A stretch of DNA of 64,000 bases from IMG/VR virus record IMGVR_UViG_3300042890_003920; one strand, 5' to 3'. Positions 11,953 to 38,560 of the stretch are shown one piece after another (position 1 is the first letter of the stretch; every line of letters starts with the position of its first letter). Made by a program: the position numbers and the translations under genes. Source of the DNA: a virus. Taxonomy: Duplodnaviria; Heunggongvirae; Uroviricota; Caudoviricetes. The notes beneath the pieces are model-generated. The model saw only the letters and a list, made by a program, of their open reading frames with translations, had not been told where the DNA came from and did not search any database.

Positions 11953-12009
11953 ATGTCGTTATTTAATACAACAAAGATATGGATATTATTTTATAATATA
12001 TACATTATT

Positions 12010-15000: not shown

Positions 15001-15014
15001 AAATAAAGTATAAT

Positions 15015-20286: not shown

Positions 20287-20901
20287 ATGAAATACTTAAA
20301 ATCATTTAATGAAGGTTCTACTACGACTGATGTAGATTATTATAAATCCGCTATACATTACTTCAATAATAATTTGAATAATGATAGAGCATTAGAATAT
20401 ATCAATAAAGCCATTGAGTTATCAGATAGAAAAAGTAATCCATACTATTTCGCTTTAAAACAAATGATTGAGGAAAAAGGACCTGAACCAAAGTTTGAAA
20501 GTAATGAGCAACAGATAGAAGCTTTAAAAGATTTATGTGATACTAATCTAGCTTATCTAAAAGATGATAATTTCATTGTAAGGGTTGTTCCTTCTAGACC
20601 TGATAGTTTCTATATATTTATTGGATCAGATGGATTTAATCCAAGTGGTGAAAGATATTATTTTAGTTGGTTATCTGTAAAGAATCATTTAATACCATTC
20701 TTTCATTACCTACTAAAAGATTTTAAGATACAAGATAATCCAAAGGGTACTAATAACAGAGGTGTATCATTTGTTAGTTATGGTACTTTTAATGATACTA
20801 ATGAGTATGTTAAGGTTGATCAAATCTTAAATGATGAGATAGAAGATGATAAACAAATAGCGGGTATATCTATTTATATTAAGTCGGAATACTTTATTTA
20901 A
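20287..20901 (+). CDS. divergent family-A protein (MKYLKSFNEG … LKDLCDTNLAYLKDD … LSVKNHLIPFF)
   Basis: family motifs with an inserted segment. Confidence 0.6.
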   Translation: MKYLKSFNEGSTTTDVDYYKSAIHYFNNNLNNDRALEYINKAIELSDRKSNPYYFALKQMIEEKGPEPKFESNEQQIEALKDLCDTNLAYLKDDNFIVRVVPSRPDSFYIFIGSDGFNPSGERYYFSWLSVKNHLIPFFHYLLKDFKIQDNPKGTNNRGVSFVSYGTFNDTNEYVKVDQILNDEIEDDKQIAGISIYIKSEYFI

Positions 20902-21411: not shown

Positions 21412-21441
21412 AGAAGTGTGGTGAAAACTACACTTCTTTTA
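21412..21441 (+). terminator. rho-independent terminator
   Basis: 8-bp stem agaagtgt/acacttct followed by T-run. Confidence 0.55.
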
Positions 21442-21610
21442 TTATACCTACATAGTAACCTTTAAAGCTACTTTCTTCAATAAGGTTCTCTGTAACTAAC
21501 CTTTCTATTTGTTGTTTAGTTGATTGCATATCCTCTTTGGTGATATAAGAACTTATATAAGTTATATGGGTTGGTAGCTTTAAATGTTTTATTAGAACTT
21601 CATCTTTCAT
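21428..21610 (-). CDS. hypothetical small protein
   Basis: ORF 60 aa overlapping rpiB stop. Confidence 0.35.
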   Translation of the reverse strand: MKDEVLIKHLKLPTHITYISSYITKEDMQSTKQQIERLVTENLIEESSFKGYYVGIIKEV

Positions 21611-22038
21611 TATCTATCAATCTTAGCAATTCTATCTAAATGTCTTCCACCTTCAAATCCTGTATTGATGAATTCATCTACACATTCAAACGCAGTTTCA
21701 TCAGAGATATATCTTGCTGGTAAAGTAAGTATATTCGCATCATTATGTAATCTAGCCATATTAGCTATCTCTGCGCTCCAACAAACCGCTGATCTAACAC
21801 CAGACCATTTATTGGCGGTCATACTGATACCATTACCGGAACCACAGATTAGGATACCGAAGTCACAATTTTGATTGGTAACATCATTGGCAACTGCGTG
21901 AGCGAAGTCTGGATAGTCACATCGTTCTTCTGAGTGACAACCAAAGTCATTTACTTCGATATTTTTGGTGGTTAGATATTGTTTAACCTTTTCTTTAAGT
22001 TCGTATGCTGCGTGGTCGCAACCGATAGATATTTTCAT
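21610..22038 (-). CDS. rpiB: ribose-5-phosphate isomerase B (RpiB/LacAB family)
   Basis: MKISIGCDHAAYELKEKV…GILICGSGNGISMTANKW… typical RpiB signature, 142 aa. Confidence 0.85.
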   Translation of the reverse strand: MKISIGCDHAAYELKEKVKQYLTTKNIEVNDFGCHSEERCDYPDFAHAVANDVTNQNCDFGILICGSGNGISMTANKWSGVRSAVCWSAEIANMARLHNDANILTLPARYISDETAFECVDEFINTGFEGGRHLDRIAKIDR

Positions 22039-22068
22039 AGTGGTTTTTATTTATTATAGAATCTTATA

Positions 22069-22257
22069 TTATTCTAATTCTATTTGTTTATTTTTTCTTC
22101 TATCAGCTTTTCTTCTAGCTACTTTCGCTTTGGCTCTTGCTTTTCTAGCATTACCATAACGTTCACCTCTTTCTTCTTGCCACGTTGCTTCGCCTCGGTC
22201 GGCGTTTAAACTGATGGTGTAACCAGTTCGTGTCGATAGTTTTGATACTTTTTTCAT
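22069..22257 (-). CDS. small highly basic protein (Arg/Lys-rich C-terminus)
   Basis: ORF 62 aa. Confidence 0.4.
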   Translation of the reverse strand: MKKVSKLSTRTGYTISLNADRGEATWQEERGERYGNARKARAKAKVARRKADRRKNKQIELE

Positions 22258-22493
22258 ATTCCCAATTCTTTTAACTTGTTATCTCTTGACATTGATTTTG
22301 TGATAAACATATTTTTCTTGTAGTAAACTTTCATATCACCTAAGTCGGTTCTAATGAAAAGGTGTTTACTTTCTACACCATTATAAACAAAACCTCCAAA
22401 CTCATAAGACTTACCTTTGGTTAGTTCCTTTACTTTGCCTTGACCTGGTATATTTCGGTAGAAGTCTCTTACTGGTATTACTATATCTATCAT
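22254..22493 (-). CDS. small protein with family-B-like tail (…SRDNKLKELGI)
   Basis: C-terminal motif. Confidence 0.5.
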   Translation of the reverse strand: MIDIVIPVRDFYRNIPGQGKVKELTKGKSYEFGGFVYNGVESKHLFIRTDLGDMKVYYKKNMFITKSMSRDNKLKELGI

Positions 22494-22498
22494 ATTCT

Positions 22499-23218
22499 TT
22501 ACTTTTTAAATTCAAATTGTATTAAACCCCAATCAACTTCAAGGCCGTTTGCGGTAGATTTTATTCCTAATATATCACGAATCCCATCATAAATAATATT
22601 TTCATTGACTTTATCTAACCCAAAGAAATAAGAAAAGAAACAAAGCATCTCAGATTTATCTTTAAATACAAACGGATACTGGTTATATTGTGTTCTTATA
22701 ATCTTTTGTTGTAATAATGGAAATTCATTAAATGAATCTTCTGTAAAGAAAATTCCATTATGACCTAATGAATTATATTCATTAACAAATTCATTTAAAA
22801 AAATATCAACTGCGGTATCTTTTTTTACATCAGAGAAGATAAATGAACCATTTGCTTTCAAAACTCTCAAACATTCGTTCACAAATTTAGGAACATCATT
22901 CAAATGATGTAAACCACTTAAAGAAAGAACTAAGTCAAATGAATTATCCGAATATGAAAATTGTGTAGGATCTACAAGTTGTATATTTTCATTTGTAAAA
23001 CCTTCTGAAAAGTCTGCCGAGATAAGTTCAATATTGTTAGGAAGATATTTTTTTAAATACCCACCACCAGATGGAATATCTAAAACGTTCTTAATGTTTG
23101 AAAAATCGGTACTACCGATTAAACTTTCAAATTCATAAGAACGAACATCTGGATATTTCTGCATCGCCCAGTGATAATCATTTGCTCTTTTTTCAAAAAT
23201 CTTTTGGTAGTCGTTCAT
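22499..23218 (-). CDS. class I SAM-dependent methyltransferase
   Basis: motif I VLDIPSGGGY, 239 aa. Confidence 0.6.
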   Translation of the reverse strand: MNDYQKIFEKRANDYHWAMQKYPDVRSYEFESLIGSTDFSNIKNVLDIPSGGGYLKKYLPNNIELISADFSEGFTNENIQLVDPTQFSYSDNSFDLVLSLSGLHHLNDVPKFVNECLRVLKANGSFIFSDVKKDTAVDIFLNEFVNEYNSLGHNGIFFTEDSFNEFPLLQQKIIRTQYNQYPFVFKDKSEMLCFFSYFFGLDKVNENIIYDGIRDILGIKSTANGLEVDWGLIQFEFKK

Positions 23219-24109
23219 TTACTTATTTATAAAATTTTTCATTTTCCAAGCTTCCAATGTATTTAGAATCAATCCCGATATAGTCATTGGTCCAACACCT
23301 CCAGGTACTGGAGTTATTCTAGCTTTCTTTACAATTTCTTCATAGTCACAATCACCTACTAGTTTACCATTATCTAGTTTATTGATACCAACATCAATCA
23401 CAACTGCACCTTCTTTAATCATATCTGCTGTTACTAAATTAGGTTTACCAACTGCTACAATAACAATATCTGCTTTTAAACACTCTTCATTTAGAAGCAA
23501 CTTAGGTGTATTTATATCACACGTGGTTACTGTTGATCTTCCAATGTTAAAATCATTAGATAACATAATAGAGATAGGTTTACCAACGTGATTTGATTTC
23601 CCTATAACAACGACATGTTTTCCTTTTGTTTCAATTTGGTAATACTCTAGAAGTTTCAGAATACCATAAGCGGTGGCGGGTCTCATTGATTTTTGACCTA
23701 AACACATTTTACCAAAGTTAAGTGGATGAAAACCATCAATATCTTTGTAAGCACTTATTTCATTGATAATTGGTTCAGGTCGGATATGATTAGGTAGTGG
23801 TAGTTGAACTATGAATCCATCGTGGTGAGATTTATTTAGATTTTTGACTTCTAGTAATAAATCATACTCGGATATAGTTTCATCAAATCTAATTAGGTTG
23901 TAGTTGATGTTAGCGGATTCACAAGCTTTTAATTTGGCTTTGACATATGATTCGGATGCGGGGTTATTACCGACAAGAATGATTGCTATACTAGGTTTAG
24001 CAATTTTATATCCTAATCTGATTTTAGATTCATTTATATGTTCGTCAACTGACTCTTTAATTTGGTTGATAATTTTATCTGCTACTAGTTTGCCGTTTAA
24101 TCTATTCAT
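23219..24109 (-). CDS. folD: bifunctional methylenetetrahydrofolate dehydrogenase/methenyl-THF cyclohydrolase FolD
   Basis: PSIAIILVGNNPASESYVKAK…GFHP.N.GK…VVVIGKSNHVGKP…PVPGGVGPMT signature, 296 aa. Confidence 0.85.
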   Translation of the reverse strand: MNRLNGKLVADKIINQIKESVDEHINESKIRLGYKIAKPSIAIILVGNNPASESYVKAKLKACESANINYNLIRFDETISEYDLLLEVKNLNKSHHDGFIVQLPLPNHIRPEPIINEISAYKDIDGFHPLNFGKMCLGQKSMRPATAYGILKLLEYYQIETKGKHVVVIGKSNHVGKPISIMLSNDFNIGRSTVTTCDINTPKLLLNEECLKADIVIVAVGKPNLVTADMIKEGAVVIDVGINKLDNGKLVGDCDYEEIVKKARITPVPGGVGPMTISGLILNTLEAWKMKNFINK

Positions 24110-24338
24110 TATTTAATAGTTGATTTAATTTTTGTTCTCTTATATTTTGTATAGTCATAAAGTAGGTAATTATTTTACCACTTTCATAACCATAAAGTGA
24201 AGGCCAACCTCTCACACCACGATCATTTAGAATGTCTAGGTTAAAACCAGTTAAATCACTTATTAGTTGGTATTTCTTACCTTTAGTAAAGTTAGCAAAT
24301 CTGTGATCAACACATACTACCCAATCACCTTTTTTCAT
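24102..24338 (-). CDS. family-B small protein (tail IREQKLNQLLNNE)
   Basis: member 1 of a 9-gene head-to-tail array. Confidence 0.6.
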   Translation of the reverse strand: MKKGDWVVCVDHRFANFTKGKKYQLISDLTGFNLDILNDRGVRGWPSLYGYESGKIITYFMTIQNIREQKLNQLLNNE

Positions 24339-24562
24339 ATCAATTTATCTAATTGTTGTTCTCTCCACTGTTCTATGGTAAGAAAGTATTTTCTATCTAA
24401 AGCATATTCTGTACCTTCTTTAACAAAGAAGTATCTAGTTTTTAGAAATGGTTCAGAATCTTCTGAGTAATCATTTCTAGATTTTTCAGTTACATCAATC
24501 CATTCACCTAACTTAATACGAAGAGTTCTTAAATGAGTATTTGATACACATATTACTTTCAT
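24335..24562 (-). CDS. family-B small protein (MKVICVSNT…EQWREQQLDKLI)
   Basis: array member. Confidence 0.6.
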   Translation of the reverse strand: MKVICVSNTHLRTLRIKLGEWIDVTEKSRNDYSEDSEPFLKTRYFFVKEGTEYALDRKYFLTIEQWREQQLDKLI

Positions 24563-24906
24563 ATACCTAGTTTATTTAATTTCTTCTCTCTTGTCTTATC
24601 TATACGATTCAGAAAATCTGGTATATCAGGAACTTCGTGATATTCCCACCACTCTGAACCATCATACTCACCTCTTGTTGTCCAAGTACCGTCTTCATAC
24701 CAAATCATACCATCTAGTTCTTGGCCACCATACCCGTTATTATACTCTCTATCTATATCAGATAAAAACTGATTATATTCATCTTCGGTGTATCCGGTTG
24801 TAAGTGAGAACCTTTCATCTTCATAATCTAACTCTATATAAGCACATTTGATTACTTTACTTTTGGTGTGTCTAACAAACTCTTCTTTTGCATTTATTAT
24901 AGCCAT
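24559..24906 (-). CDS. family-B-tail protein (…TREKKLNKLGI)
   Basis: array member. Confidence 0.55.
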   Translation of the reverse strand: MAIINAKEEFVRHTKSKVIKCAYIELDYEDERFSLTTGYTEDEYNQFLSDIDREYNNGYGGQELDGMIWYEDGTWTTRGEYDGSEWWEYHEVPDIPDFLNRIDKTREKKLNKLGI

Positions 24907-24907
24907 A

Positions 24908-25153
24908 TTATATTCCCAGTTTTTCTAATTGGTTATTTCTCCATTTTTGTTTGTAATCTTCTGCCTTGACAAAATATCCAGGTGGTATCCATCTTTGTTC
25001 TTCCTCAACCCAATTTGAGAAAGTTTCCCAATTATCTATATCAGTTTGCATTACTAATCCAGATAATGTATATTCTTTACCTATTACTAGTAATGGTTCG
25101 CTTCTTTTATAATTATTTATTACGATAGTATTTGATACACATATTACTTTCAT
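24908..25153 (-). CDS. family-B small protein (MKVICVSNT…KWRNNQLEKLGI)
   Basis: array member. Confidence 0.6.
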   Translation of the reverse strand: MKVICVSNTIVINNYKRSEPLLVIGKEYTLSGLVMQTDIDNWETFSNWVEEEQRWIPPGYFVKAEDYKQKWRNNQLEKLGI

Positions 25154-25377
25154 ATACCTAGTTTATCTAATTTATCTTGTCTATCTTGTTGAATATCTGC
25201 TTCAATAAATTCACCTGTGTGGTTTATAAAGATGTTACACGTATTCGAGAAACCTTTATCACAATTGTGTTTAACCCCATAGAAGTTTTTACCAATATGA
25301 AATACAACACCTTTTACGTTATAGATTTCGGATATCCTTTTGGTTATGATTACGTTATCTCCTATTTTAAAATTCAT
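25150..25377 (-). CDS. family-B-tail protein (…DRQDKLDKLGI)
   Basis: array member. Confidence 0.55.
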   Translation of the reverse strand: MNFKIGDNVIITKRISEIYNVKGVVFHIGKNFYGVKHNCDKGFSNTCNIFINHTGEFIEADIQQDRQDKLDKLGI

Positions 25378-25615
25378 CTAATAGTTCTTCTAATTGTTTA
25401 TTTCTCCATTCTGGTAAAGATATGAAATCTTGTTGTAATACAGTAACCGCATAATTTTTACCATCAATAAAATCTATTACAATATTTATCTTATCTCCGC
25501 TCAGTTGATAATAAACAGGTTGTAATCGTGCTACTTCAAATTGGTCACCTATATTGAAATAATAATCTAAATGGTTGAATGAATACAAACATTCTTTAAT
25601 ACATACTACTTTCAT
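25367..25615 (-). CDS. family-B small protein (MKVVCIKE…EWRNKQLEELL)
   Basis: array member. Confidence 0.6.
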   Translation of the reverse strand: MKVVCIKECLYSFNHLDYYFNIGDQFEVARLQPVYYQLSGDKINIVIDFIDGKNYAVTVLQQDFISLPEWRNKQLEELLDEF

Positions 25616-25970
25616 CTAATATACTATTTAATTTATTATCTCTTAGTATTTGTGTAAAGTTTACAAAAGTATAATCATCCCAATCACCATAGACATCATA
25701 GTCCCTATTAGACCTAGAATATAGTTGGTATTCAAATCTTACACCAAATTCCATACTTATTATTCTTTTCCTTACTAAAATGATAGAACTATGTTTCGTG
25801 GATAGAAATTGAGTATATTTTTCAAACATATCTTCTTCTTCACTTTCTTTCCAATCCATCTTCTGATAAGTAATGCCTTCTTGTTTACTTATCTCGATAA
25901 ATTGTTTTATATGTTCGAATGTATCACATATAAATGCGGTATTACCGTTTTCTATTATTTCTTTAATCAT
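25596..25970 (-). CDS. family-B-tail protein (…LRDNKLNSILDES)
   Basis: array member. Confidence 0.55.
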   Translation of the reverse strand: MIKEIIENGNTAFICDTFEHIKQFIEISKQEGITYQKMDWKESEEEDMFEKYTQFLSTKHSSIILVRKRIISMEFGVRFEYQLYSRSNRDYDVYGDWDDYTFVNFTQILRDNKLNSILDESSMY

Positions 25971-26181
25971 TTAAAATCTGATTTATTTTATTATCTCTTA
26001 ATTGTTGAATTGTAATAAAGCTTTCTTTCCGAAACTGACTTTGTATATTATTATCTGCAATAAGTAAATATCCATGTTCATTGATGGATTCCACCTCATA
26101 TATTTCACCTACTGTTAGAAATCTATAGTGTATAGTATTCGGATTTTCATTTGCCGCAGTTGATATACATTTAACTTTCAT
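25963..26181 (-). CDS. family-B small protein (MKVKCIST…LRDNKINQILND)
   Basis: array member. Confidence 0.6.
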   Translation of the reverse strand: MKVKCISTAANENPNTIHYRFLTVGEIYEVESINEHGYLLIADNNIQSQFRKESFITIQQLRDNKINQILND

Positions 26182-26392
26182 TTAAAATCTGATTTATTTT
26201 ATTCTCTCTTACCTCTGCGGTCGCATCTTCGAACCATGTATGAATATCATATGTACATTCAAAATCTGCATCATTTGTTAGTATGATATAGGTAAGATTA
26301 CTCCAATCTGATGTCCAGTAACGTTTGACCTCATATACTTTTTGATACGTTAGATTGACTGCCAATGGATTCACACACTTAACCCAGTTCAT
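26171..26392 (-). CDS. family-B small protein (MNWVKCVN…VRENKINQILNES)
   Basis: array member. Confidence 0.6.
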   Translation of the reverse strand: MNWVKCVNPLAVNLTYQKVYEVKRYWTSDWSNLTYIILTNDADFECTYDIHTWFEDATAEVRENKINQILNES

Positions 26393-26616
26393 TACAATCG
26401 TCTTAGTTCAAAGATTTCATCTTCAAAGGTTTTATCTAAATAATCTTGGGCTTCTTGCTCTGAGTCGTCTTCTAATGATAAACCTAATAGTTCAATTTGT
26501 TTTGGTTCATTATCAATGATTTCGTATATGGTAACAAGTTTGCTACCGGTACATTCTAGTACATCGTCTCCGTAATCTTCTACGGCGATGTCTACTACAT
26601 AGTAAAATTTTCTCAT
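26392..26616 (-). CDS. small acidic protein
   Basis: ORF 74 aa. Confidence 0.45.
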   Translation of the reverse strand: MRKFYYVVDIAVEDYGDDVLECTGSKLVTIYEIIDNEPKQIELLGLSLEDDSEQEAQDYLDKTFEDEIFELRRL

Positions 26617-26617
26617 A

Positions 26618-26890
26618 TTAGTTTTCTTCTGTTTGTTCTACTTCTTCTACATAAACATCGATTTCATCACCATCATCACCTTGATAGTCTAATTCATACT
26701 TATATGAATCTTTGACGTAGGTTCCTGGGAAATGTTCTGATTCTGGACTGAATCTAGCTAATCTAGACCAATCTTCTGTTGCTTCATAGATTTCTTCTTC
26801 TAAGTCTTCTAATGCCAAGTCTGATTCGATTTCTAGTTCAACTCTAACCTGTGCGGTTACATACTGGTTTAAATAAATTTTGTACTTCAT
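26618..26890 (-). CDS. small very acidic protein
   Basis: ORF 90 aa. Confidence 0.45.
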   Translation of the reverse strand: MKYKIYLNQYVTAQVRVELEIESDLALEDLEEEIYEATEDWSRLARFSPESEHFPGTYVKDSYKYELDYQGDDGDEIDVYVEEVEQTEEN

Positions 26891-26891
26891 A

Positions 26892-27164
26892 TTATTGTTT
26901 TAGTGTTATTTTTCGTATATCTGGTTTAACAAAACATAAGTCAATACCTTTATTTTGAATTATTTGTTTTAATTGATCTTCATTCCAATGATTAAGTTGA
27001 ATAGAAGGTGCTGCAATGTTATGTATCGGTGTTAAAACACTGACATCACCTTCGTCTTCACCTACTGGTGTAAAGAATATATAATCATTTTCTGATACGT
27101 CAAATTGTTCCATTACTAGATTCAATTTATCAATCAGTTGTTTTATTGTTAAAGGTTGTATCAT
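26892..27164 (-). CDS. hypothetical protein
   Basis: ORF 90 aa. Confidence 0.45.
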   Translation of the reverse strand: MIQPLTIKQLIDKLNLVMEQFDVSENDYIFFTPVGEDEGDVSVLTPIHNIAAPSIQLNHWNEDQLKQIIQNKGIDLCFVKPDIRKITLKQ

Positions 27165-27180
27165 AATTTATTTGTTTTAA

Positions 27181-27360
27181 AAATCCTCACTGATTGAATC
27201 TAATCTAGATGTCGTATTTACTTTATCCACCTTTTGATTGATAGATTCACATGCAGTTAGATATCCTTTAATTTCTTCTTCTGACCAACCTTCAAATGAT
27301 TGTTCTTTTAAAGTTTTGATATATCGTTTTATCTCTTCAAAATAATAGTTGTTCATATTT
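27181..27360 (-). CDS. hypothetical small protein (MNNYYFEEIKRYIK…, 59 aa; below ORF-track cutoff)
   Basis: uninterrupted ORF filling an otherwise empty gap in the minus-strand operon. Confidence 0.4.
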
Positions 27361-27362
27361 TT

Positions 27363-27788
27363 TTATAATTGAATTGGTAATAAGTGTTCTGGTAAGTATT
27401 GTTCTGGACAAACGATTGTATAACTATCTATATTGTATTCATACTTTAATAGGTAGTTTATATCTTCCGCCTTCTTATCATGATAATTGATTATCACATA
27501 AGGAATCTTAACTTTATTATCAAGTTTGATACGTATCTTCTGAAAGTCCATTTGTAAGTATCTATATTCTCCATCAACGGCTCCCATCGCTTTGACATCA
27601 GTAGTGGTATAAGTACCAGAACTAGCGGATCCTGCAATCAAAAAGAATGATGCTGATGAATAGGTTTCCTTTGTCTCACTTTTGACAAGTTGACGTAAAG
27701 GAATTTTTTTTGTATGTCTATCTGTATAAGGTTGACCACACGAAGTTAAAAGCACTATGGCTACAAGTAAAAGGATTAGTTTTTTCAT
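27363..27788 (-). CDS. lipoprotein (MKKLILLLVAIVLLTSCGQ)
   Basis: lipoprotein signal peptide. Confidence 0.55.
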   Translation of the reverse strand: MKKLILLLVAIVLLTSCGQPYTDRHTKKIPLRQLVKSETKETYSSASFFLIAGSASSGTYTTTDVKAMGAVDGEYRYLQMDFQKIRIKLDNKVKIPYVIINYHDKKAEDINYLLKYEYNIDSYTIVCPEQYLPEHLLPIQL

Positions 27789-27799
27789 ATTTATTTTAT

Positions 27800-28093
27800 T
27801 TATTTAAGTTGAATCATTGCTATACCTCTGGAGTCATTATACAGAAGTATTTCCTTACCATCTTGTAAGGTTACTTTGTACAATCCAATACTACGACCAT
27901 TGGTATGTAATTCACCAGTGATGTATTCGATACTTTTAGCTTTATGATTTTTTGTGGTTACTTCTATAGGTTCAGTTGGTTTATCTGGTGCGAATAGATC
28001 ACAAGATGTTGCGGTGATAGCAAGTAATAATAAGATTATTTTTTTCATATTTAGTAATTTATTTAATTTTTTATTTAATTTAATTCCCAACAT
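27800..28093 (-). CDS. lipoprotein (…LLLLAITATSCD)
   Basis: signal peptide with lipobox. Confidence 0.5.
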   Translation of the reverse strand: MLGIKLNKKLNKLLNMKKIILLLLAITATSCDLFAPDKPTEPIEVTTKNHKAKSIEYITGELHTNGRSIGLYKVTLQDGKEILLYNDSRGIAMIQLK

Positions 28094-28461
28094 AAGTCAG
28101 ATAAAAGTTTATCTCTTTCATCTATCGACTGTATGATTTCTAGTTTATGTTGTTCTGATTTTTCACCATTATCTTTCCAACAAGTTTCTTGGTCGAAATC
28201 ATTTAATGTAGCTGATCTAACTAACTCGTTATAATCTTCATCACGTAGATAACCTTTTAGTGGCATTAAACGACCTACACATGTATTCCATGTTAGTTTT
28301 CTACCATCATAGGTGATCCAATACAAATCGTGTTCGTCTTCACCTATCGCTACTAATCTTTCGATTTTATGGCTTTGAGTGATTACGAACTGGCCTTTTA
28401 GTGATTCAAACTCTTGTTTTACTCTTTCTTCTGGTGTCATATTATATTTTTTCGTGTTCAA
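28075..28461 (-). CDS. hypothetical protein
   Basis: ORF 128 aa. Confidence 0.5.
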   Translation of the reverse strand: MNTKKYNMTPEERVKQEFESLKGQFVITQSHKIERLVAIGEDEHDLYWITYDGRKLTWNTCVGRLMPLKGYLRDEDYNELVRSATLNDFDQETCWKDNGEKSEQHKLEIIQSIDERDKLLSDLCWELN

Positions 28462-28813
28462 TTAGTCTAGAGGCAGTAGCATAATTTGTTGCTAAAGGTA
28501 TATCATAAACATTACATAGTCTCATAAGCATGTGAATATCTACTGAATGTGGATGTGAAAACATTGGATCTATAAAGAATAGAACCATATCAATTTTACC
28601 TTCTACGATAAGAGTCGCGATTTGTGCGTCTCCACCTAATGGTCCCGACTTCAAACATTCGACTTCTAAACCACCTGCGTGTATGATATGTGAACCGGTT
28701 GTACCGGTTGCGAATAATTTTACATCTTTTTGTTTAAAGAATTTTAATCGTTTCATAACGAAAGCGACCATATCGGCTTTCTTATTATCGTGTGCAATGA
28801 TTGCTATGTTCAT
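28442..28813 (-). CDS. mgsA: methylglyoxal synthase
   Basis: IAIIAHD.KK…LFATGTTG…LKSGPLGGD.QI..LI.EGKID…FF.DP…PH..D…L.RLC.V..IP.ATN signature; -7 box TAACTTTG at 28834..28841. Confidence 0.8.
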   Translation of the reverse strand: MNIAIIAHDNKKADMVAFVMKRLKFFKQKDVKLFATGTTGSHIIHAGGLEVECLKSGPLGGDAQIATLIVEGKIDMVLFFIDPMFSHPHSVDIHMLMRLCNVYDIPLATNYATASRLIEHEKI

Positions 28814-28833
28814 ATTATATCTTTTTATTTATA

Positions 28834-28841
28834 CAAAGTTA
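28834..28841 (-). promoter_or_regulatory. sigmaA-type -7 box TAACTTTG upstream of mgsA operon
   Basis: about 15 nt upstream of ATG. Confidence 0.45.
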
Positions 28842-28861
28842 CGTATAAAGATTTATATAAC

Positions 28862-29182
28862 CTAATATAAATCTTCCGAGTATAAAGTCGTCTTTAACTC
28901 TTCAGTCTGACCTGCCATAAAAGCTATTTGACCTGCTTCTTTTCTATCAACAAATCTATTAGTATTGGTTAAGAACCCTTGTTCGTATTCACCAACACCA
29001 TCAACCGCGTTTGTGACACTTCTTAGTCCAGTTAAAGAAGCCATAGTCCACATACATTGACCGTGACGATGGCCTAGAACAACTAAGCCTTTATCACAGT
29101 TTTTTGGTAGAACTTGAGGTATTTCTTTCTTTAAAGGGATTTCTTTGTACCAGATAGCGGCACATAGTATGTACTCTTTCAT
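28862..29182 (-). CDS. hypothetical protein
   Basis: ORF 106 aa. Confidence 0.5.
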   Translation of the reverse strand: MKEYILCAAIWYKEIPLKKEIPQVLPKNCDKGLVVLGHRHGQCMWTMASLTGLRSVTNAVDGVGEYEQGFLTNTNRFVDRKEAGQIAFMAGQTEELKTTLYSEDLY

Positions 29183-29757
29183 TAAGCTATATTTAATTCG
29201 TTAAGTTTCATTTCTCTTAGAACTTCTAAGTTTATTGATAATGGTTCATTCTTTGAAGCATATCTTTTATTATGTTTAATAAGATACTCTTCAATTGTTA
29301 TTTCATTATCTCCCATATCACTAGGGGATATACCATAAGGAATTACTAGTTTATCACCTAACATGTATGAACTAATATAATTCATTTTAAGGTCCCAATC
29401 TTTTATCATGGTGTAAACCTTTTGGTAGTTAAGAAAAGCATTGAATAGTACTTCCCATTTAGAGACTAATTCTTTTTTAATAATACGCTGGGCTATATCA
29501 TCTGTTATAGGATAAACTTTATAAGCAAAAACTTGATTATCATATTTAGATGAATAGTGTCTAGGTGTATTTATGATGTCGTGTTCAAAGTAGTAGTATT
29601 GGTTACCTTGTTTAGTTAAACCATCTCTTATATGGTCGGAAGATCTTGGATAATCTTCGTGTTTTACAAAAGCGATAGCCGTTTCATCGGTGATTACATC
29701 GATGAAAGGTTCGCATTTAGTTAAGGTTTTTATGGATTTATCTCTTATTACTATCAT
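29182..29757 (-). CDS. hypothetical protein with tail EVLREMKLNELNIA (start probably at MKMIVIRD)
   Basis: ORF; N-terminal extension would overlap upstream gene. Confidence 0.45.
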   Translation of the reverse strand: MIVIRDKSIKTLTKCEPFIDVITDETAIAFVKHEDYPRSSDHIRDGLTKQGNQYYYFEHDIINTPRHYSSKYDNQVFAYKVYPITDDIAQRIIKKELVSKWEVLFNAFLNYQKVYTMIKDWDLKMNYISSYMLGDKLVIPYGISPSDMGDNEITIEEYLIKHNKRYASKNEPLSINLEVLREMKLNELNIA

Positions 29758-29941
29758 TTTCATATTTTTTTCTACCCACACATTTTGTTTTTTCTTTTGT
29801 GTCCCATAGGTCACCTCGTTTATCTTGAGGTATCATATGACAATTATGTGCTTTATCATATTTCTTTGAGTGTTCGATAATCATATCATTGAATTTATTT
29901 CTAACAACCCACGGACATTCTTTACAGGGAGTCTTACACAT
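29738..29941 (-). CDS. small Cys/His-rich (zinc-binding-like) protein
   Basis: CKTPCKEC…HNCHM…C pattern. Confidence 0.45.
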   Translation of the reverse strand: MCKTPCKECPWVVRNKFNDMIIEHSKKYDKAHNCHMIPQDKRGDLWDTKEKTKCVGRKKYENDSNKR

Positions 29942-30033
29942 TATTTACGTTTGATTAAAGATAAAAGGTCTGATAAAATTGGTACAACTAAAAAACATAT
30001 AATTAGTGCGATACCTGCGGCTGAGTCTGTCAT
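29941..30033 (-). CDS. 30-aa hydrophobic peptide MTDSAAGIALIICFLVVPILSDLLSLIKRK
   Basis: -7 box TATCTTTG (30048..30055) about 8 nt upstream of its ATG; TAATG overlap with next gene. Confidence 0.4.
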   Translation of the reverse strand: MTDSAAGIALIICFLVVPILSDLLSLIKRK

Positions 30034-30094
30034 ATAATTTCTTTTCACAAAGATAGTAAAAATAATTATAAAATAAAAATATGTATTGACTAAC

Positions 30095-30805
30095 TTAGGT
30101 ATTATTATTGATAATAAATTTAGAGCATTCTAATAAAAAATTCATATCCCAAATACTTTTAAACATATTTATACTATGCCATACTAATTGAATATTATCT
30201 AACTCATAAGTTCCTCCATTCTTTTTGGGATTTATTCTATCTATTGATGGTAATTTTGGACTTCCATTTTTTAATTCAAAGTCCTGTCCAGTTATTGCAC
30301 ATTTATAATTTTGTTTTTCTAGGACAGACATTAAATCATTTATGGAAAAATAATCCTTTCTATTTCTTTTATTCATTAGTGATTGGAAATATTTTTCAAA
30401 TGAAGAGTATCTATTTAGGTTCAAATTATATTTATTCAAATAGTAATAATCTTTTTTCTGATCTAATGCACAATCAGTACAATATTTATGTCCCCATTTA
30501 AAGGATGATTCTAGTTTATATTCCTCACATCGATAACATAGAAAATCTCCATTTAAACACTTTAACTCTTTTAAAACTCTTTTATTTTTATTTCTGACAA
30601 TCTCTATTCCTTTTTCGACAACTTGGTCTATAGCATCAAATGCGTCATTCCAACTTGGGAAAAATGCAACATGTTTTCCGTCGAATACTAACTGATAAGG
30701 ATTTTTTGAATATTGTTTACAGTTTGCTATTGTAAGTTTACTAATACCTAAATCTTTTTTCTTTTGAAAAAGTATTTTAGTTTCGTTTGTCCATTTCTTT
30801 CCCAT
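30095..30805 (-). CDS. HNH-family homing-endonuclease-like protein
   Basis: C-terminal …SIDRINPKKNGGTYELDNIQLVWHSINMFK HNH-type motif plus Cys-rich N-terminal half. Confidence 0.55.
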   Translation of the reverse strand: MGKKWTNETKILFQKKKDLGISKLTIANCKQYSKNPYQLVFDGKHVAFFPSWNDAFDAIDQVVEKGIEIVRNKNKRVLKELKCLNGDFLCYRCEEYKLESSFKWGHKYCTDCALDQKKDYYYLNKYNLNLNRYSSFEKYFQSLMNKRNRKDYFSINDLMSVLEKQNYKCAITGQDFELKNGSPKLPSIDRINPKKNGGTYELDNIQLVWHSINMFKSIWDMNFLLECSKFIINNNT

Positions 30806-30886
30806 ATATATTGTTTTTAATTTTATATATTATTTCTCACAATACCTATACTGATTTTTATTGAAAAAAAAATTTATATATACTTA

Positions 30887-31471
30887 ATGAAACATTTGAA
30901 AACATTTGATGAGATTACCGAATCTTATAATAAACCAAGAGCTGGTGGTAAGAAACGCTGGTCGGTCAAATATAAGAAGTCAATAAATTGCTCTAATGCA
31001 AAGGGGTTTTCTCAAAAGCAGTATTGTAAGAGGAAAAGAAAAGGTGGTTCTTATAAGAATGAGTCTGTTGAATCTGTGATGGGTGGTTTAATTCAAAAAG
31101 TTGGTAAGGTTATTGAAGGTGTTGATGAATTGTGTGAACAACATTTAGTTTACTTACAGGATGATGGGTTTAAATATTTCATTGATATAAATGAAGATCT
31201 AAACAGTGATTTATATAATCAAGGTGATGTTATCTTTATTTTAGAGAGAAATCGAGAAGAATTTTCTTGGGATCAGGTCAAGGATAGGTTTATACCATTT
31301 TTGATTATGTTGAAAAGGGATTTCAAACCGTTATCAGATATTGAATTCGCTTTGGGTACTAACTGGAGGTATGCGACTAATAATGAGAAGTTTGAAATAA
31401 ATCTTCTTATAAATGATGCTATTGATTCGTATAGTAACATAGTAGAAATAATTATAAAGATAAACGTATAA
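30887..31471 (+). CDS. family-A protein with basic insert (MKHLKTFDEI … CEQHLVYLQDDG … FSWDQVKDRFIPFL)
   Basis: family motifs; atatatactta motif upstream. Confidence 0.6.
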   Translation: MKHLKTFDEITESYNKPRAGGKKRWSVKYKKSINCSNAKGFSQKQYCKRKRKGGSYKNESVESVMGGLIQKVGKVIEGVDELCEQHLVYLQDDGFKYFIDINEDLNSDLYNQGDVIFILERNREEFSWDQVKDRFIPFLIMLKRDFKPLSDIEFALGTNWRYATNNEKFEINLLINDAIDSYSNIVEIIIKINV

Positions 31472-31472
31472 T

Positions 31473-31982
31473 TTATATATCTAATTTTACTTGATTTTTC
31501 TTTACCTTTATAATAACACCAATACTTATCAAATCTGGATCTGGTGTCCACTTATAATATATATGATCCTTCCAATAACCTTCTGAATCAAATACATCAT
31601 CATTAATGACTCTGGCATAACTGAAATTTTTACTAACATTTACAAATGAATAATCGTTCTTTTGACGGTATCTAAATCTAACACTTGGTTCACGTGAATC
31701 TACATCACCATCGAAAAAAGTACCTATATCATATCTATTAGATAATAATTGTAAGAAAGGAATATAATAATCCTTTACATCATCCCATTTAAAAAACTCT
31801 CTACCATTATTCTTTGCTAAAAAAATACCAAACTGTCCCGTAGTTGCCCTTGCACGTGGATCGTCACCGCCCCTAATAGTAACGTTGAAGCTCTCATCCA
31901 TTAGATAAGCTAATGATGATTCACAGAAGTCTTGTAGGTCTTCTTGGGTTACTCCCTCGTTAAATCTTTTCAAATGTTTCAT
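31473..31982 (-). CDS. family-A protein (MKHLKRFNEG…DFCESSLAYLMDES)
   Basis: family motifs. Confidence 0.65.
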   Translation of the reverse strand: MKHLKRFNEGVTQEDLQDFCESSLAYLMDESFNVTIRGGDDPRARATTGQFGIFLAKNNGREFFKWDDVKDYYIPFLQLLSNRYDIGTFFDGDVDSREPSVRFRYRQKNDYSFVNVSKNFSYARVINDDVFDSEGYWKDHIYYKWTPDPDLISIGVIIKVKKNQVKLDI

Positions 31983-32374
31983 TTTAGAAAGAATACTATT
32001 TTTTCGACAATCTTTTCTTGTGGAAGATTTTCTAATTCATCATATGAAAGATAAAGTTCTTTGCTATAATTACCCACAAAATTTCGATTTGAAACTTGTA
32101 CTATAATGAATTTATCAGAACCATCTTCTAAACTATTTATTTCATAAACATTATTAAATCTATGTAAGAATGGTATAATCTGATCTTTGATTTCTGACCA
32201 CGGTCTACCGTGTCCATTAGATTGGTAAAGGTATAGTGTAACAAATAAATCTGATCGGTCATTATCAATTCTAACTTCTAATCCTTCATCCATTAGATAA
32301 GCTAGATGGGTTTCACAATAATCTTTTAGATCATATTCGTTTATACTTTCATTAAATCTTTTCAAATATCTCAT
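31979..32374 (-). CDS. family-A protein (MRYLKRFNES…DYCETHLAYLMDEG)
   Basis: family motifs. Confidence 0.65.
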   Translation of the reverse strand: MRYLKRFNESINEYDLKDYCETHLAYLMDEGLEVRIDNDRSDLFVTLYLYQSNGHGRPWSEIKDQIIPFLHRFNNVYEINSLEDGSDKFIIVQVSNRNFVGNYSKELYLSYDELENLPQEKIVEKIVFFLK

Positions 32375-32438
32375 AAACTATATATAAATAAAAGTGATTT
32401 AATTTTTTAATATATACATTATAAAAATAATATACATT

Positions 32439-32648
32439 ATGAAAAACTTACTAATCTTTGAAGACTTTAAAGAGGTTCTTATTGTAGAGAAAAATGTGCC
32501 GACAAATTCTGAATTGTGGAATACTTGTAAAGCTTGGGCTAAGTCGAAGTATGATGTATGGCCATCTGCGTATGCTTGTGGTGCTGCTGCAAAAAGATAT
32601 AAGGCTAAAGGTGGTAAGTGGAAAAAAGCTAAAAAGAAAAAGAAATAA
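32439..32648 (+). CDS. small protein with Lys-rich tail (MKNLLIFEDF…KKAKKKKK)
   Basis: two tandem copies of taatatatacattat motif upstream. Confidence 0.5.
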   Translation: MKNLLIFEDFKEVLIVEKNVPTNSELWNTCKAWAKSKYDVWPSAYACGAAAKRYKAKGGKWKKAKKKKK

Positions 32649-32941
32649 TGGAACATATATTATTATTTGAACAATTTATTTTAGAGGAAAAGAAAACTAA
32701 AGGTGGTTTAGACAAATGGTTTAAAGAAAAATGGGTAGATATATCTAAAACCAATGCTGATGGTTCACACCCACCTTGTGGTCGTGATGATGCTGACAAA
32801 GGTGGTTATCCAAAATGTAGAAAGGTTAGAGTTGCTGCAAGGATGTCTGCAAAAGAGAAAAAAGCATCTGTTGCAAGAAAGAGAAAAGTAGAGAAAACCG
32901 GTTCGAAAGGTGAAGGTAGAAAACCAAACTATGCAAAATAA
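32648..32941 (+). CDS. small protein with basic tail (MEHILLFEQF…)
   Basis: paralogous N-terminus to previous; ATGA-type coupling. Confidence 0.5.
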   Translation: MEHILLFEQFILEEKKTKGGLDKWFKEKWVDISKTNADGSHPPCGRDDADKGGYPKCRKVRVAARMSAKEKKASVARKRKVEKTGSKGEGRKPNYAK

Positions 32942-33024
32942 TACAAAAGTGATATAATATTTTATATCACTTTTTTTATACATTATATTTATCAACAAAG
33001 TTATACTCAAATTATATAACGTGT

Positions 33025-34128
33025 ATGAATAAATTAGATAAACAATACACAGACTTGCTACTAGACATTTTACATAATGGTCAAGCAAAAGGTGATAGAA
33101 CCGGTACAGGAACAATCTCAGTATTCGGTAGACAGATCAGACATGATATGAAGGATGGTTTTCCTTTACTAACAACCAAAAAGATGCCATTCAAAACAAT
33201 CGTAACAGAATTGTTATGGTTTTTAAATGGTGATACTAATATAAAGTATCTAGTTGATAATGGTTGTAACATTTGGAATGGTGATGCTTATAAAAACTAT
33301 GTCACAAAATTCAAAGAGTATTGGAGTGGAAAAGGATATGATGTACCTACAATGGAAACCTTCGTCGATAGAATTAAGAATCAACAAGGATTTTCTGAAG
33401 AGAATGGTCAGCTAGGTCCAATTTACGGAGCTCAGTGGAGATCTTGGAGAGTTGGTAAGGGAATTGAAACTACATTAAAAACTGAAGATGGTGAATCTAT
33501 ATATGAGGCAGGTTCAATGTATATTGACCAAATTGCAAACCTAATCAAAGATTTAAAAACAAATCCAGATTCTAGACGATTGATGGTTTCTGCTTGGAAT
33601 GTGGGAGAATTGGAGAATATGGTTTTACCACCTTGTCATTATGGATTTCAAGTTTATACCAGAGAGTTAGATGCAGAGACTAGATATAACATCTGGTTTA
33701 ATAACAATTATGAAACAGGTATGGAAAGATTCTTTGATCCTAACAAACTACCTGATTATGATAATACATATTATATACCGACACCTACCAGAGCAATCTC
33801 ACTTATGTGGAATCAACGTTCAGTAGATACATTCTTAGGATTGCCATTTAATATAGCTTCTTATGCTCTTTTATTAGAGATTATTGCAAGAGAAGTGAAT
33901 ATGGTGCCGGATCAATTGATTGGAAATTTAGGTGATGTTCATTTATATTCTAATCATATTGAACAAGCTAAGGAACAGATTGCGAGAAAAGGATTGGATT
34001 TACCTAGTATAATTATAAATAAAGTTATGAAGAAAGCAGATGATTCATTACCTTTATACAATATAACTGACTTTAAATTAAATGATTATAAGTCACACGA
34101 AACAATTAAAGCAAAATTAAGTAATTAA
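33025..34128 (+). CDS. thyA: thymidylate synthase (ThyA, long 367-aa form)
   Basis: DRTGTGT…, LPPCHY.FQ.Y, …FLGLPFNIASYALL…, two insertions relative to 264-aa enzymes. Confidence 0.85.
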   Translation: MNKLDKQYTDLLLDILHNGQAKGDRTGTGTISVFGRQIRHDMKDGFPLLTTKKMPFKTIVTELLWFLNGDTNIKYLVDNGCNIWNGDAYKNYVTKFKEYWSGKGYDVPTMETFVDRIKNQQGFSEENGQLGPIYGAQWRSWRVGKGIETTLKTEDGESIYEAGSMYIDQIANLIKDLKTNPDSRRLMVSAWNVGELENMVLPPCHYGFQVYTRELDAETRYNIWFNNNYETGMERFFDPNKLPDYDNTYYIPTPTRAISLMWNQRSVDTFLGLPFNIASYALLLEIIAREVNMVPDQLIGNLGDVHLYSNHIEQAKEQIARKGLDLPSIIINKVMKKADDSLPLYNITDFKLNDYKSHETIKAKLSN

Positions 34129-35536: not shown

Positions 35537-35965
35537 ATGAAAAAGGAAATACAATTAAGATCAATACTAGATGATGAAGGTCATTTAGCTAGTCCACAAT
35601 TACCATCTGATATTAAAAATTATCTAATAGATATTGATGGTACTATTACAGATGATGTACCTAATGAAGAGCATGAACGTATGTCAGTAGTTATACCTTA
35701 CTCTGATTCTGTAGAAACATTAAATAGATGGTATGATGAAGGACATGTTATCACATTCTTTACTTCTAGAACAGAAGAGCATAGAGACATAACTGAGGCT
35801 TGGTTAAACAAGTGGGGTTATAAGTATCATGGATTACTAATGAATAAACCAAGAGGTGGTAACTATCATTGGGTAGATAATCATATTGTAAAGGGAACTA
35901 GATACGAGGGTGTTTGGAGTGATCTTGTTAGAGAAGAAAGAACGATAGAAGTTTTCCCATCATAA
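35537..35965 (+). CDS. HAD-superfamily phosphatase-like protein
   Basis: motif I DIDGTIT. Confidence 0.45.
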   Translation: MKKEIQLRSILDDEGHLASPQLPSDIKNYLIDIDGTITDDVPNEEHERMSVVIPYSDSVETLNRWYDEGHVITFFTSRTEEHRDITEAWLNKWGYKYHGLLMNKPRGGNYHWVDNHIVKGTRYEGVWSDLVREERTIEVFPS

Positions 35966-36940: not shown

Positions 36941-37522
36941 ATGAAAAGAACAGATATTATAAATAAACTTGTTGTAAAATATAACTACAAATCATATTTA
37001 GAGGTTGGTACTCAAGATCCATCATCTAACTTTGATCTAATAAATATAGAACATAAGGTTTCTATTGACCCATTTCCTAGAGGTGCAGTTACTTTTGTTG
37101 GAACATCTGATGAATATTTTGATTCAATTACTAAGGATGTAAAGTATGATATTATTTTTATTGATGGTTTACATCATTCAGAACAAGTATTAAAAGATAT
37201 TGAAAATTCATTAAATCATTTATCTGATAATGGAACAATTGTTTGTCATGATTGTTTACCAACAACTGAAAAGATGCAATATAGAGAAGATCACGGTGAA
37301 GAATGGACTGGTGATGTTTGGAAAGCAATTGCCGAATTAAGAGTTGTACGAACTGATTTAGATATAAAGGTAGTAGATAGTGATTATGGTTGTGGTATAA
37401 TTAGAAGAGGTACTAATATACCATATCAAACATCTGAGGATTATAAAACATATTCTCACTTTTCATTAAATAGAAATCATTTAATGAATGTTATCTCAAC
37501 CAATGATTTATTAAAAATATGA
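36941..37522 (+). CDS. putative SAM-dependent methyltransferase (TylF/CmcI-like fold)
   Basis: …YLEVGTQDP…IIFIDGLHHSEQ…DNGTIVCHD…. Confidence 0.4.
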   Translation: MKRTDIINKLVVKYNYKSYLEVGTQDPSSNFDLINIEHKVSIDPFPRGAVTFVGTSDEYFDSITKDVKYDIIFIDGLHHSEQVLKDIENSLNHLSDNGTIVCHDCLPTTEKMQYREDHGEEWTGDVWKAIAELRVVRTDLDIKVVDSDYGCGIIRRGTNIPYQTSEDYKTYSHFSLNRNHLMNVISTNDLLKI

Positions 37523-37699: not shown

Positions 37700-38110
37700 A
37701 TGAAGTATTTAAAAAGTATTTTTGAGTCTAGGAGTGAAAAAGATCTTACTGAGTTACAAGATACTTGTGAGATGTATCTAGCTTATTTAATTGATAATGG
37801 ATTTCATGTTGAGATACAAGATTTTGATATAATAGATATAGACATTAGAAATGATTTAGATGCTAATGAGGAAGAAACTTTTAAATGGTCGGACGTAAAG
37901 GATCATGTGATACCTTTAATAACTTTATTTAAGAATGATCATTTTAGATATAAATTAAAAGAGACTGTTTTATTCTATAAGGGTAAGCCAGATGATATGG
38001 TGAGTATTTCTAATTTTAATTCTGGTAGACGCCACATAGGATTAGATGAGAATTTAGAATCAATAAAAGAAGATCAAGAAATAATTTGCTTAACAATAAG
38101 AGTTCGATAG
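37700..38110 (+). CDS. family-A protein
   Basis: MKYLKSIFES…DTCEMYLAYLIDNG…WSDVKDHVIPLI. Confidence 0.65.
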   Translation: MKYLKSIFESRSEKDLTELQDTCEMYLAYLIDNGFHVEIQDFDIIDIDIRNDLDANEEETFKWSDVKDHVIPLITLFKNDHFRYKLKETVLFYKGKPDDMVSISNFNSGRRHIGLDENLESIKEDQEIICLTIRVR

Positions 38111-38111
38111 T

Positions 38112-38558
38112 ATGAGATATTTAAGAAAATTTGAGAATTTACAGGATAGATTTACCACTGATGAATTGTCTGAAATAAGGAATAAGTGTGAGATGTATCT
38201 GGCTTATTTAGTTGATAATGGATTTGATATTGATATAGATAATACAGAAAGTACTCATAGTTGTATAGATATAACACAATCTAATACACTGGATGCTAAA
38301 CTACATTTTACTGAAACTGGTGATGGTGTATCTTGGTCAGAAATAAAGGATAATATTATTCCTTTAATTTCTTTATTTATGAAAGGTGACTTTGATTGTC
38401 AATTATTAAATATAGAATTTTTCTTTTGGAGAAAAAGACCTATACTAGTGGAAGCTGAAGATTTTGAGGATTTTATTAATGATAGACCTCATTCATTTTC
38501 ATTGAAAGATTTAGAAGGTAATGGTATATCGTGTATAACATTAGAAATAAAGAAATAA
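38112..38558 (+). CDS. family-A protein
   Basis: MRYLRKFENL…NKCEMYLAYLVDNG…WSEIKDNIIPLI. Confidence 0.65.
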   Translation: MRYLRKFENLQDRFTTDELSEIRNKCEMYLAYLVDNGFDIDIDNTESTHSCIDITQSNTLDAKLHFTETGDGVSWSEIKDNIIPLISLFMKGDFDCQLLNIEFFFWRKRPILVEAEDFEDFINDRPHSFSLKDLEGNGISCITLEIKK

Positions 38559-38560
38559 GT

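Follow-up and report, generated by a model that had tools for sequence, protein, structure and literature searches.

Auxiliary metabolic genes (AMGs) of phages are known mainly from cyanophages, where they concern photosynthesis, the pentose-phosphate pathway, and phosphate uptake. In T4-like cyanomyoviruses, the pentose-phosphate genes talC, zwf, gnd, and CP12 are thought to push carbon towards ribose-5-phosphate and reduced nicotinamide adenine dinucleotide phosphate (NADPH) for the synthesis of deoxynucleoside triphosphates, and phage T4 possesses the nucleotide-precursor genes td and frd, with a thymidylate synthase for the supply of deoxythymidine monophosphate (dTMP). Here, we analyse a stretch of 64,000 nucleotides, referred to as the window, from IMG/VR virus record IMGVR_UViG_3300042890_003920 (Caudoviricetes), which carries genes for methylglyoxal synthase (mgsA), ribose-5-phosphate isomerase B (rpiB), methylene-tetrahydrofolate (THF) dehydrogenase/methenyl-THF cyclohydrolase (folD), and thymidylate synthase (thyA). 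We regard it as fairly probable that the window belongs to a huge Bacteroidota phage, whose lineage-conserved, host-derived metabolic set boosts nucleotide-precursor supply during infection. As in cyanophages, host-derived central-carbon genes would be borne by a large phage; however, the probable host is here a Bacteroidota bacterium, no Calvin-cycle inhibitor accompanies the set, mgsA and folD, which to our knowledge are not part of the cyanophage set, are added, and the system is known from its genes alone.

Two further groups of described systems are close to this locus. Al-Shayeb et al. (2020; PMC7162821) reported a manually curated 634-kb genome of the Mahaphage clade, for which Bacteroidetes were predicted as host, in a paper that does not mention methylglyoxal. 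LR745206.1 comes from an uncultured phage, has a length of 634,780 bp and a guanine-plus-cytosine (GC) content of 29%, and is presumed from its matching length to be that genome. Mahaphage-clade huge phages (LR745206.1 and Lak) are similar to the window in their low GC content (29-30%), Bacteroidetes host prediction, and genomes of very large size with many genes of nucleotide metabolism. The window has rpiB, folD, and thyA in common with LR745206.1 (67%, 72%, and 50% identity, respectively), but in the latter these genes are dispersed and mgsA is unmatched. The closest relative found is L175, a 305,553-bp metagenome scaffold deposited in ENA. With regard to mgsA, virome surveys of Lake Baikal (PMC8066274; a freshwater scaffold of 120 kb), the plastisphere (PMC12397222), and a brine pool (PMC11252502) list it as an AMG, in single-line entries under propanoate or methane metabolism, with no phylogeny, selection analysis, synteny, or mechanism. 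Viral mgsA is thus present in the literature only as a survey catalogue entry, rarely reported yet recurrent in uncultivated large phages. AMGs and metabolic genes in huge phages are known; what is new is a better-characterised viral MgsA clade, the function of which we infer.

Methylglyoxal synthase and its viral clade

The window mgsA is an intact open reading frame (ORF) of 123 residues on the minus strand (28442-28813). Its product matches the MGS domain PF02142 (E = 2e-15, 57.1 bits, cutoff 24.1) and scores above both equivalog models, TIGR00160 (156.8 bits, cutoff 146.9) and NF003559 (162.4 bits, cutoff 84), with about 50% identity to solved MGS structures (E = 3e-32). Residues H8, D9, K12, T36, T38, T39, S56, G57, D62, D82, H89, and D92 are present and correspond, by the alignment offset to 1b93, to E. 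coli H19, D20, K23, T45, T47, T48, S65, G66, D71, D91, H98, and D101, which we take to comprise the catalytic Asp71/His98, His19, Asp20, Asp91, and Asp101, and the phosphate-binding Lys23, Thr45/47/48, Ser65, and Gly66. Ten of these twelve positions are invariant in an 18-sequence alignment (the exceptions being T39 and G57), and all twelve are retained in 115 of the 120 nearest database proteins. Judged by these features, the window protein is a true MgsA and not a generic MGS-like domain, sharing fold, family, and catalytic and phosphate-binding residues with the bacterial enzymes (E. coli 1b93, B. subtilis 6f2c, and the short form of Bacteroidota).

Viral MgsA differs from its bacterial counterparts by its location on phage genomes, by forming a separate clade, and by three residues, N10, R22, and Y111, which are near-fixed in the viral proteins, absent from all 79 bacterial sequences compared, and found together in 102 of the 120 closest database proteins. 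These residues, the first of which stands next to the active-site His-Asp pair, occur in no sampled Bacteroidota enzyme and could be taken to mean that an MgsA-like protein has been kept for a non-catalytic or other role, such as the binding of a host regulator (Crh in the case of B. subtilis MgsA) or action on another phosphorylated substrate. The preservation of the twelve functional residues among relatives, the scores above both equivalog cutoffs, and the similarity to crystallised MGS proteins make such a role very unlikely. The length of the protein is no viral peculiarity either: it is shorter than the E. coli enzyme (152 residues), but viral MgsA (120-125 residues) and Bacteroidota MgsA (120-136 residues) both lack the C-terminal tail of about 20 residues of the former, so that a phage-specific truncation removing the E. 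coli allosteric tail was rejected.

A neighbour-joining tree, limited to the nearest 80 sequences each from viruses and from bacteria over 119 columns and rooted on two Firmicutes structure sequences, separated 51 distinct viral from 79 distinct bacterial MgsA proteins into two clean clades. The viral clade, within which identities range from 59% to 97%, received a bootstrap value of 94/100 with subsampled taxa and was placed next to Bacteroidota MgsA. Among 270 viral mgsA pairs, the ratio of non-synonymous to synonymous substitution rates (dN/dS) has a median of 0.106 and a maximum of 0.40. The window gene differs from that of an independent assembly encoding an identical MgsA (L001) by 12 nucleotides, all synonymous. 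Furthermore, the metabolic genes deviate by no more than about 1.6 standard deviations from the other window genes in GC content at third codon positions (GC3) and in codon fit. The low dN/dS, the monophyletic clade, and the ameliorated codon use indicate that viral mgsA is kept by selection and is not a contamination, and by these sequence criteria it is an old, selected viral gene, sister to Bacteroidota MgsA. Recent capture from a host, for which the original prediction had suggested a check of codon usage and GC content, is therefore not supported.

That prediction had also described methylglyoxal synthase as very rarely reported on phages. This holds for the reports, which amount to 22 matches in GenBank phage records and the three surveys, but not for the gene, which occurs in 124 IMG/VR contigs or more, including several with lengths of 270-373 kb. 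The 22 GenBank matches all lie in unannotated fragments ('Listeria phage LM' contigs and faecal 'Bacteriophage sp.') and are probably host carry-over. The GenBank matches of rpiB and folD are likewise mostly found in short unannotated records ('Listeria phage LM...', 'Enterococcus phage...', 'Bacteriophage sp.'), and fragment records matching mgsA, rpiB, or folD, for example OR848172.1, OR846812.1, and MT835682.1, resemble carried-over host DNA.

With regard to genomic surroundings, the frequent neighbours of viral mgsA include T4-type RNA ligases 1 and 2, a phosphoesterase, a DinG-like helicase, NAMPT, Hsp70, and sugar-nucleotide enzymes, but the immediate neighbours vary among 48 distinct loci and no fixed partner emerged. 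In the window, a 106-residue T4 Y16D-like ORF (28862-29182, minus strand; phrog_839, E = 2.4e-21; PF26092 T4_Y16D in precomputed annotation) lies 48 nt upstream of mgsA. A related gene is present in ten other mgsA loci, at 49 to about 9,000 nt and on either side, and was rejected as a fixed partner on account of this variation. In L001, the position upstream of mgsA is occupied not by this ORF but by two DoxX_2 membrane proteins (L001 99-772), which, the two MgsA proteins being identical, indicates rapid neighbour turnover. Neither capsid nor terminase was recognised among the largest ORFs of the mgsA-bearing IMG/VR loci, which include those for a DNA transfer protein, NAMPT, and a helicase. 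A -7 promoter of the Bacteroidota type (TAnnTTTG) lies 28 nt upstream of the window mgsA; as a general feature of viral mgsA it was rejected, since it occurs in 1 of 52 viral loci against 4% expected.

These surroundings bear on the possibility that MgsA is a toxin generator, its methylglyoxal arresting host growth and macromolecular synthesis or, as originally proposed, acting as a weapon against co-infecting competitors. The intact catalytic residues would allow it, methylglyoxal is an established growth-arresting electrophile, and mgsA, as is common among genes of host takeover, stands on its own as a cassette. However, methylglyoxal also modifies guanine and arginine, and thus the DNA and proteins of the phage itself, and no neighbour is conserved that could act as an immunity or detoxification partner. 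No glyoxalase, DJ-1, or other protective partner was seen among the 25 most frequent of the 57 Pfam families beside viral mgsA; as only these 25 were listed, the absence of glyoxalase is unproven. Moreover, mgsA lies between folD and rpiB in L175, which fits a metabolic grouping better than warfare, and we consider the toxin reading unlikely and the proposed weapon against competitors unsupported, no immunity or detoxification partner being linked to viral mgsA.

Ribose-phosphate and one-carbon genes in the window and its relatives

The other three enzymes of the set are also encoded by intact ORFs. RpiB (142 residues; 21610-22038, minus strand) matches PF02502 (E = 1.2e-58) and TIGR01120 (162.9 bits, cutoff 138.65), while the LacA, LacB, and actinobacterial RpiB models all remain below their cutoffs; its CGSG, HND, and GGRH motifs align with those of Thermotoga RpiB (1o1x). 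FolD (296 residues; 23219-24109, minus strand) comprises both PF00763 (E = 2.6e-29) and PF02882 (E = 1.3e-60), and its motifs YVxxKxKA, VQLPLP, DIDGFHP, and PVPGGVGPMT align with FolD 3p2o. ThyA (367 residues; 33025-34128, plus strand) matches PF00303 (E = 1.5e-94) and TIGR03284 (325.6 bits, cutoff 108.35), and preserves the DRTGTGT, SRRL, PPCH, QRSVD, FNIASY, and GDVHLY motifs. In thymidylate synthases, the catalytic Cys resides in PCH, and Asn instead of Asp in FNIASY marks specificity for deoxyuridine monophosphate; the window protein agrees with these features and with the expected Arg residues. Judging from these motifs, rpiB, folD, mgsA, and thyA are intact, canonical genes with their catalytic motifs kept. 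The four assignments made originally were confirmed in this way and at the positions stated, domain searches supporting MGS, RpiB, FolD, and ThyA alike.

The window ThyA is of the long form: beyond the insert of the L. casei type, it has segments around residues 143-160 and 215-258 that are missing from all solved structures. Its closest cultured homolog is a 423-aa coding sequence of Flavobacterium phage immuto (62% identity), and such a long ThyA is common to immuto and uncultured phages of 634-642 kb. T4 resembles the window in having a phage thymidylate synthase for dTMP supply, but the window enzyme carries these insertions and no dihydrofolate reductase (DHFR) was found in the window. 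The inclusion of thyA in an unusual set is not upheld, since 3,926 GenBank phage records contain it and it is commonplace. By comparison, rpiB and folD are uncommon: rpiB was found in 32 GenBank phage records, five of them of Synechococcus phage, and folD in 55, Lak megaphages included. The window FolD is 94% identical to its homologs in L175 and L177, 72% to that of LR745206.1, and 48% to those of Lak megaphages.

In the window, the genes of the set extend across 26 kb, with different orphans lying in between. In L175, by contrast, three small genes separate folD from mgsA, two separate mgsA from rpiB, and one separates rpiB from gcvH, all within 4 kb and in this order, with identities to the window of 94% for folD, 92% for mgsA, and 82% for rpiB. 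Parts of this arrangement are repeated in L176 and L177, the rpiB copies next to mgsA in L175 and L176 being 82-87% identical, and rpiB and mgsA lie 7 kb apart in IMG/VR contig 3300015608_005401. The gcvH gene encodes a lone glycine-cleavage H protein (PF01597) just downstream of rpiB (L175 11571-11951, L176 2042-2422); the GCV_H family has no match in the window.

Two further elements accompany the set. An SPFH/Band-7 protein (276 residues; 9335-10165, minus strand; PF01145, E = 2.1e-21) and a 71-residue membrane partner with two hydrophobic helices, the gene of which overlaps the SPFH start (10165-10380, minus strand), had been noticed originally and were corroborated by the Pfam match and the helices. 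The SPFH protein of the window is 90% identical to that of L175, and 90-96% over L175 and L176, where it lies about 4 kb from rpiB; the partner, 86-88% identical there, lies directly upstream of Band_7 in both relatives as well. A HAD-superfamily phosphatase-like protein (142 residues; 35537-35965, plus strand), missed by the original prediction and with only weak Pfam matches below cutoffs (LNS2, HAD_PNKP, Acid_phosphat_B), has a counterpart of 89% identity in L175, at a distance of 8 kb from mgsA. The SPFH gene, its partner, and the HAD gene all lie within 11 kb of the L175 cluster.

The set being retained, and clustered, in L175, the folD/mgsA/rpiB combination is a conserved trait of the lineage while small ORFs turn over. 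The opposite view, that the metabolic genes are recently captured passengers without adaptive function, could draw on their location in a hyper-variable, orphan-rich region and on GC3 values slightly above the window mean (+1.6 standard deviations for rpiB and +1.25 for mgsA). It is highly improbable, and already largely refuted, given the monophyly and the 59-97% identities of the viral mgsA clade, its median dN/dS of 0.11, and the persistence of the set at 82-94% identity in L175 despite the turnover of small ORFs.

Virus-like context, probable host, and other genes of the window

The window has a GC content of 30%, is about 94% coding, and contains 140 ORFs, mostly shorter than 150 residues. 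The 119 ORFs left after those examined one by one were scanned in bulk; only nine Pfam and eight PHROG families were matched, and more than 90% of these ORFs are orphans without a match in either. No ribosomal or other housekeeping gene was found among the bulk-scanned ORFs, and no tRNA gene in the 64-kb window. The metabolic genes are flanked by orphan-rich, phage-like ORFs, and two collagen-repeat proteins match tail-fibre PHROGs, mainly through their repeats. At the protein level, all relatives are viral, such as IMG/VR contigs and LR745206.1, with rpiB homologs in IMG/VR contigs of up to 483 kb and folD homologs in contigs of 176-476 kb. GenBank phages contain no near-identical DNA, nor any tblastn match to the SPFH protein or to a 799-aa orphan of the window. 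The local gene order of the window is reproduced in independent assemblies, as illustrated by the recurrence of the pirin neighbourhood in L082.

Could the window nevertheless stem from a bacterial chromosome, from a cellular contig binned wrongly, or from a chimeric assembly, with the enzymes as housekeeping functions? Capsid, portal, and terminase genes are absent from the window and the fetched flanks, so that the viral assignment rests on relatives, gene content, and the IMG/VR classification. However, the dominance of ORFs without Pfam or PHROG match, the lack of ribosomal, tRNA, and housekeeping genes, an orphan paralog family of 18 copies described below, the gene order shared between assemblies, and relatives that are IMG/VR contigs and a 634-kb phage, when the closest bacterial MgsA reaches 66% identity, leave this explanation the least credible of those considered; the Pfam and PHROG scans have already largely refuted it. 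The window is in all likelihood viral and not bacterial chromosome, in agreement with the virus-like context of the original prediction, and probably belongs to a rapidly changing accessory region in a huge, uncultivated phage with a genome of at least 300 kb.

The host is, on sequence grounds, probably a Bacteroidota bacterium, because the closest bacterial MgsA proteins are from Saprospiraceae and Flavobacteriales (53-66% identity), the closest cultured ThyA is that of a Flavobacterium phage, and Shine-Dalgarno-like motifs are scarce. The latter precede none of the 71 larger window genes (3 of all 140 ORFs) compared with 5.6% of random positions, and Bacteroidota loci show a similar scarcity (2.3%).

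Several small ORFs adjoin the metabolic genes. Directly downstream of rpiB, a 60-aa ORF (21428-21610, minus strand) is 79-80% identical to, and again rpiB-adjacent in, L175 and L176. A 57-aa ORF on the plus strand (51448-51621) lies 30 kb from rpiB in the window but is 75-80% identical to an ORF less than 1 kb from rpiB in six IMG/VR loci and LR745206.1. Between rpiB and folD, a class I S-adenosylmethionine (SAM)-dependent methyltransferase of 239 residues (22499-23218, minus strand; PF08241, E = 3.4e-13; no equivalog match), also missed originally, starts one base after the folD stop; it is not beside folD in L175. On the other side, a 78-aa ORF (24102-24338, minus strand) adjoins folD and opens a tandem array of small paralogs; weak homologs of this ORF adjoin folD in LR745206.1 (L173) and in L169. 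This array consists of about ten ORFs of about 75 residues on the minus strand between folD and mgsA (22254-22493 and 24102-26392), to which the C-terminus of the 29182-29814 product can be added. Its members share the C-terminal motif R-x-x-(K/Q)-(L/I)-x-x-(L/I)-(G/L)-(I/N), as in ...REKKLNKLGI and ...RDNKINQILND, and their N-terminal halves look SH3/KOW-like, with one weak KOW match.

Farther away, a pirin-family bicupin of 223 residues (43706-44377, minus strand), already noticed originally, was confirmed by Pfam matches (PF02678, E = 1.6e-23; PF17954, E = 3.4e-16). The 18-member orphan family (about 130-200 residues; no Pfam or PHROG match) is dispersed through the window, often in tandem, at 11953-12893, 16870-17406, 20287-20901, 30887-32374, 37700-39031, 50579-51438, 52518-53823, 57369-57866, 60840-61250, and 61924-62469. 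Its members display the N-terminal motif MK(Y/H)LKxFNE, followed by LxDFCETxLAYLxDxGF and FxWxxIKDxxIPF. As a lineage marker in IMG/VR the family was discarded, the pattern being too degenerate, with three loci confirmed (weak relatives on contigs of 79-191 kb). The window further encodes two proteins with leucine-rich repeats (LRR_4/LRR_8 and BspA-type LRR_5) and one of 486 residues with DUF4874+DUF4832, at 13750-15752 (plus strand) and 40754-42214 (minus strand). They resemble surface or glycan-related proteins as typically found in Bacteroidota, but are encoded here in a phage setting; an LRR_5 protein also adjoins the metabolic cluster in L175 and L177. Finally, a Methyltransf_21 protein is encoded at 39026-39682 and a DNA methyltransferase-like protein at 36941-37522, and one bulk-scanned ORF matches phrog_4786 'cysteine dioxygenase' (E = 1.2e-27).

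A proposed role in nucleotide-precursor supply

The roles of these enzymes in their pathways rest on established biochemistry (EC 4.2.3.3 for MgsA, 5.3.1.6 for RpiB, 1.5.1.5/3.5.4.9 for FolD, and 2.1.1.45 for ThyA). With regard to the set as a whole, we propose that it would raise the supply of nucleotide precursors for the replication of a very large genome. RpiB would provide more ribose-5-phosphate for phosphoribosyl pyrophosphate, FolD, together with GcvH in the relatives, would convert one-carbon folates into one another to serve the synthesis of purines and thymidylate, and ThyA would make dTMP, a reasoning parallel to that for the pentose-phosphate genes of cyanophages and for T4 td. 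The original prediction had considered that FolD and ThyA together would yield dTMP from formyl- and methenyl-THF pools; as FolD is reversible, this route is chemically possible, should the FolD flux run in that direction, but no DHFR was found in the window.

The contribution of MgsA is proposed more tentatively. The methylglyoxal bypass is known to release inorganic phosphate from dihydroxyacetone phosphate and to keep carbon moving under phosphate scarcity. By converting dihydroxyacetone phosphate to methylglyoxal and inorganic phosphate, the viral enzyme would open this bypass and free phosphate locked in sugar phosphates, so that carbon would flow while phosphate and ADP drain into nucleotides; the toxicity of methylglyoxal would be of little consequence in a cell bound to lyse. 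We favour such a phosphate-releasing bypass of triose phosphates, which would suit a phage obliged to make hundreds of kb of DNA per virion, but, coming from pathway knowledge, it is a suggestion of limited confidence. A broader and more speculative proposal is that an ancient, phage-adapted MgsA, common to huge phages of Bacteroidota and to other large phages of aquatic habitats, forms with rpiB, folD, and gcvH a hitherto unrecognised viral strategy, in which the bypass would strip phosphate from triose phosphates, perhaps arrest the host, and pay for a genome of 300-600 kb, while N10, R22, and Y111 might tune the regulation of the enzyme, for example by relieving phosphate inhibition.

Several observations weigh against a lineage-conserved set serving precursor supply. 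LR745206.1 has no mgsA match, and its rpiB, folD, and thyA are dispersed over 450 kb; most mgsA-bearing viral loci have neither rpiB nor folD within 10 kb. The metabolic set is thus not universal. FolD remains below all 25 listed NCBIfam equivalog cutoffs (333-559), its best score being 303.4 bits against 423, a shortfall that reflects divergence and not a missing domain. Neither DHFR nor serine hydroxymethyltransferase, which would complete the thymidylate cycle, was found in the window. To these points should be added the missing virion and packaging genes, the restricted sampling of the MgsA tree, and the derivation of the bypass role from pathway knowledge.

Beyond the individual functions, an enzyme of a glycolytic bypass, known above all as the source of a toxin, proves to have long been kept under selection in many large uncultivated phages and, in one lineage, to be physically grouped with ribose-phosphate and one-carbon enzymes. 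Known viral strategies towards phosphate involve pstS and phoH; if phosphate release proves true, an intracellular phosphate-recycling route would be added to them. If this idea fails, a well-bounded AMG catalogue entry and a host prediction for a dark-matter phage would still stand. In either case, the 123-residue MgsA represents a simple, clonable handle on how huge phages provision very large genomes.

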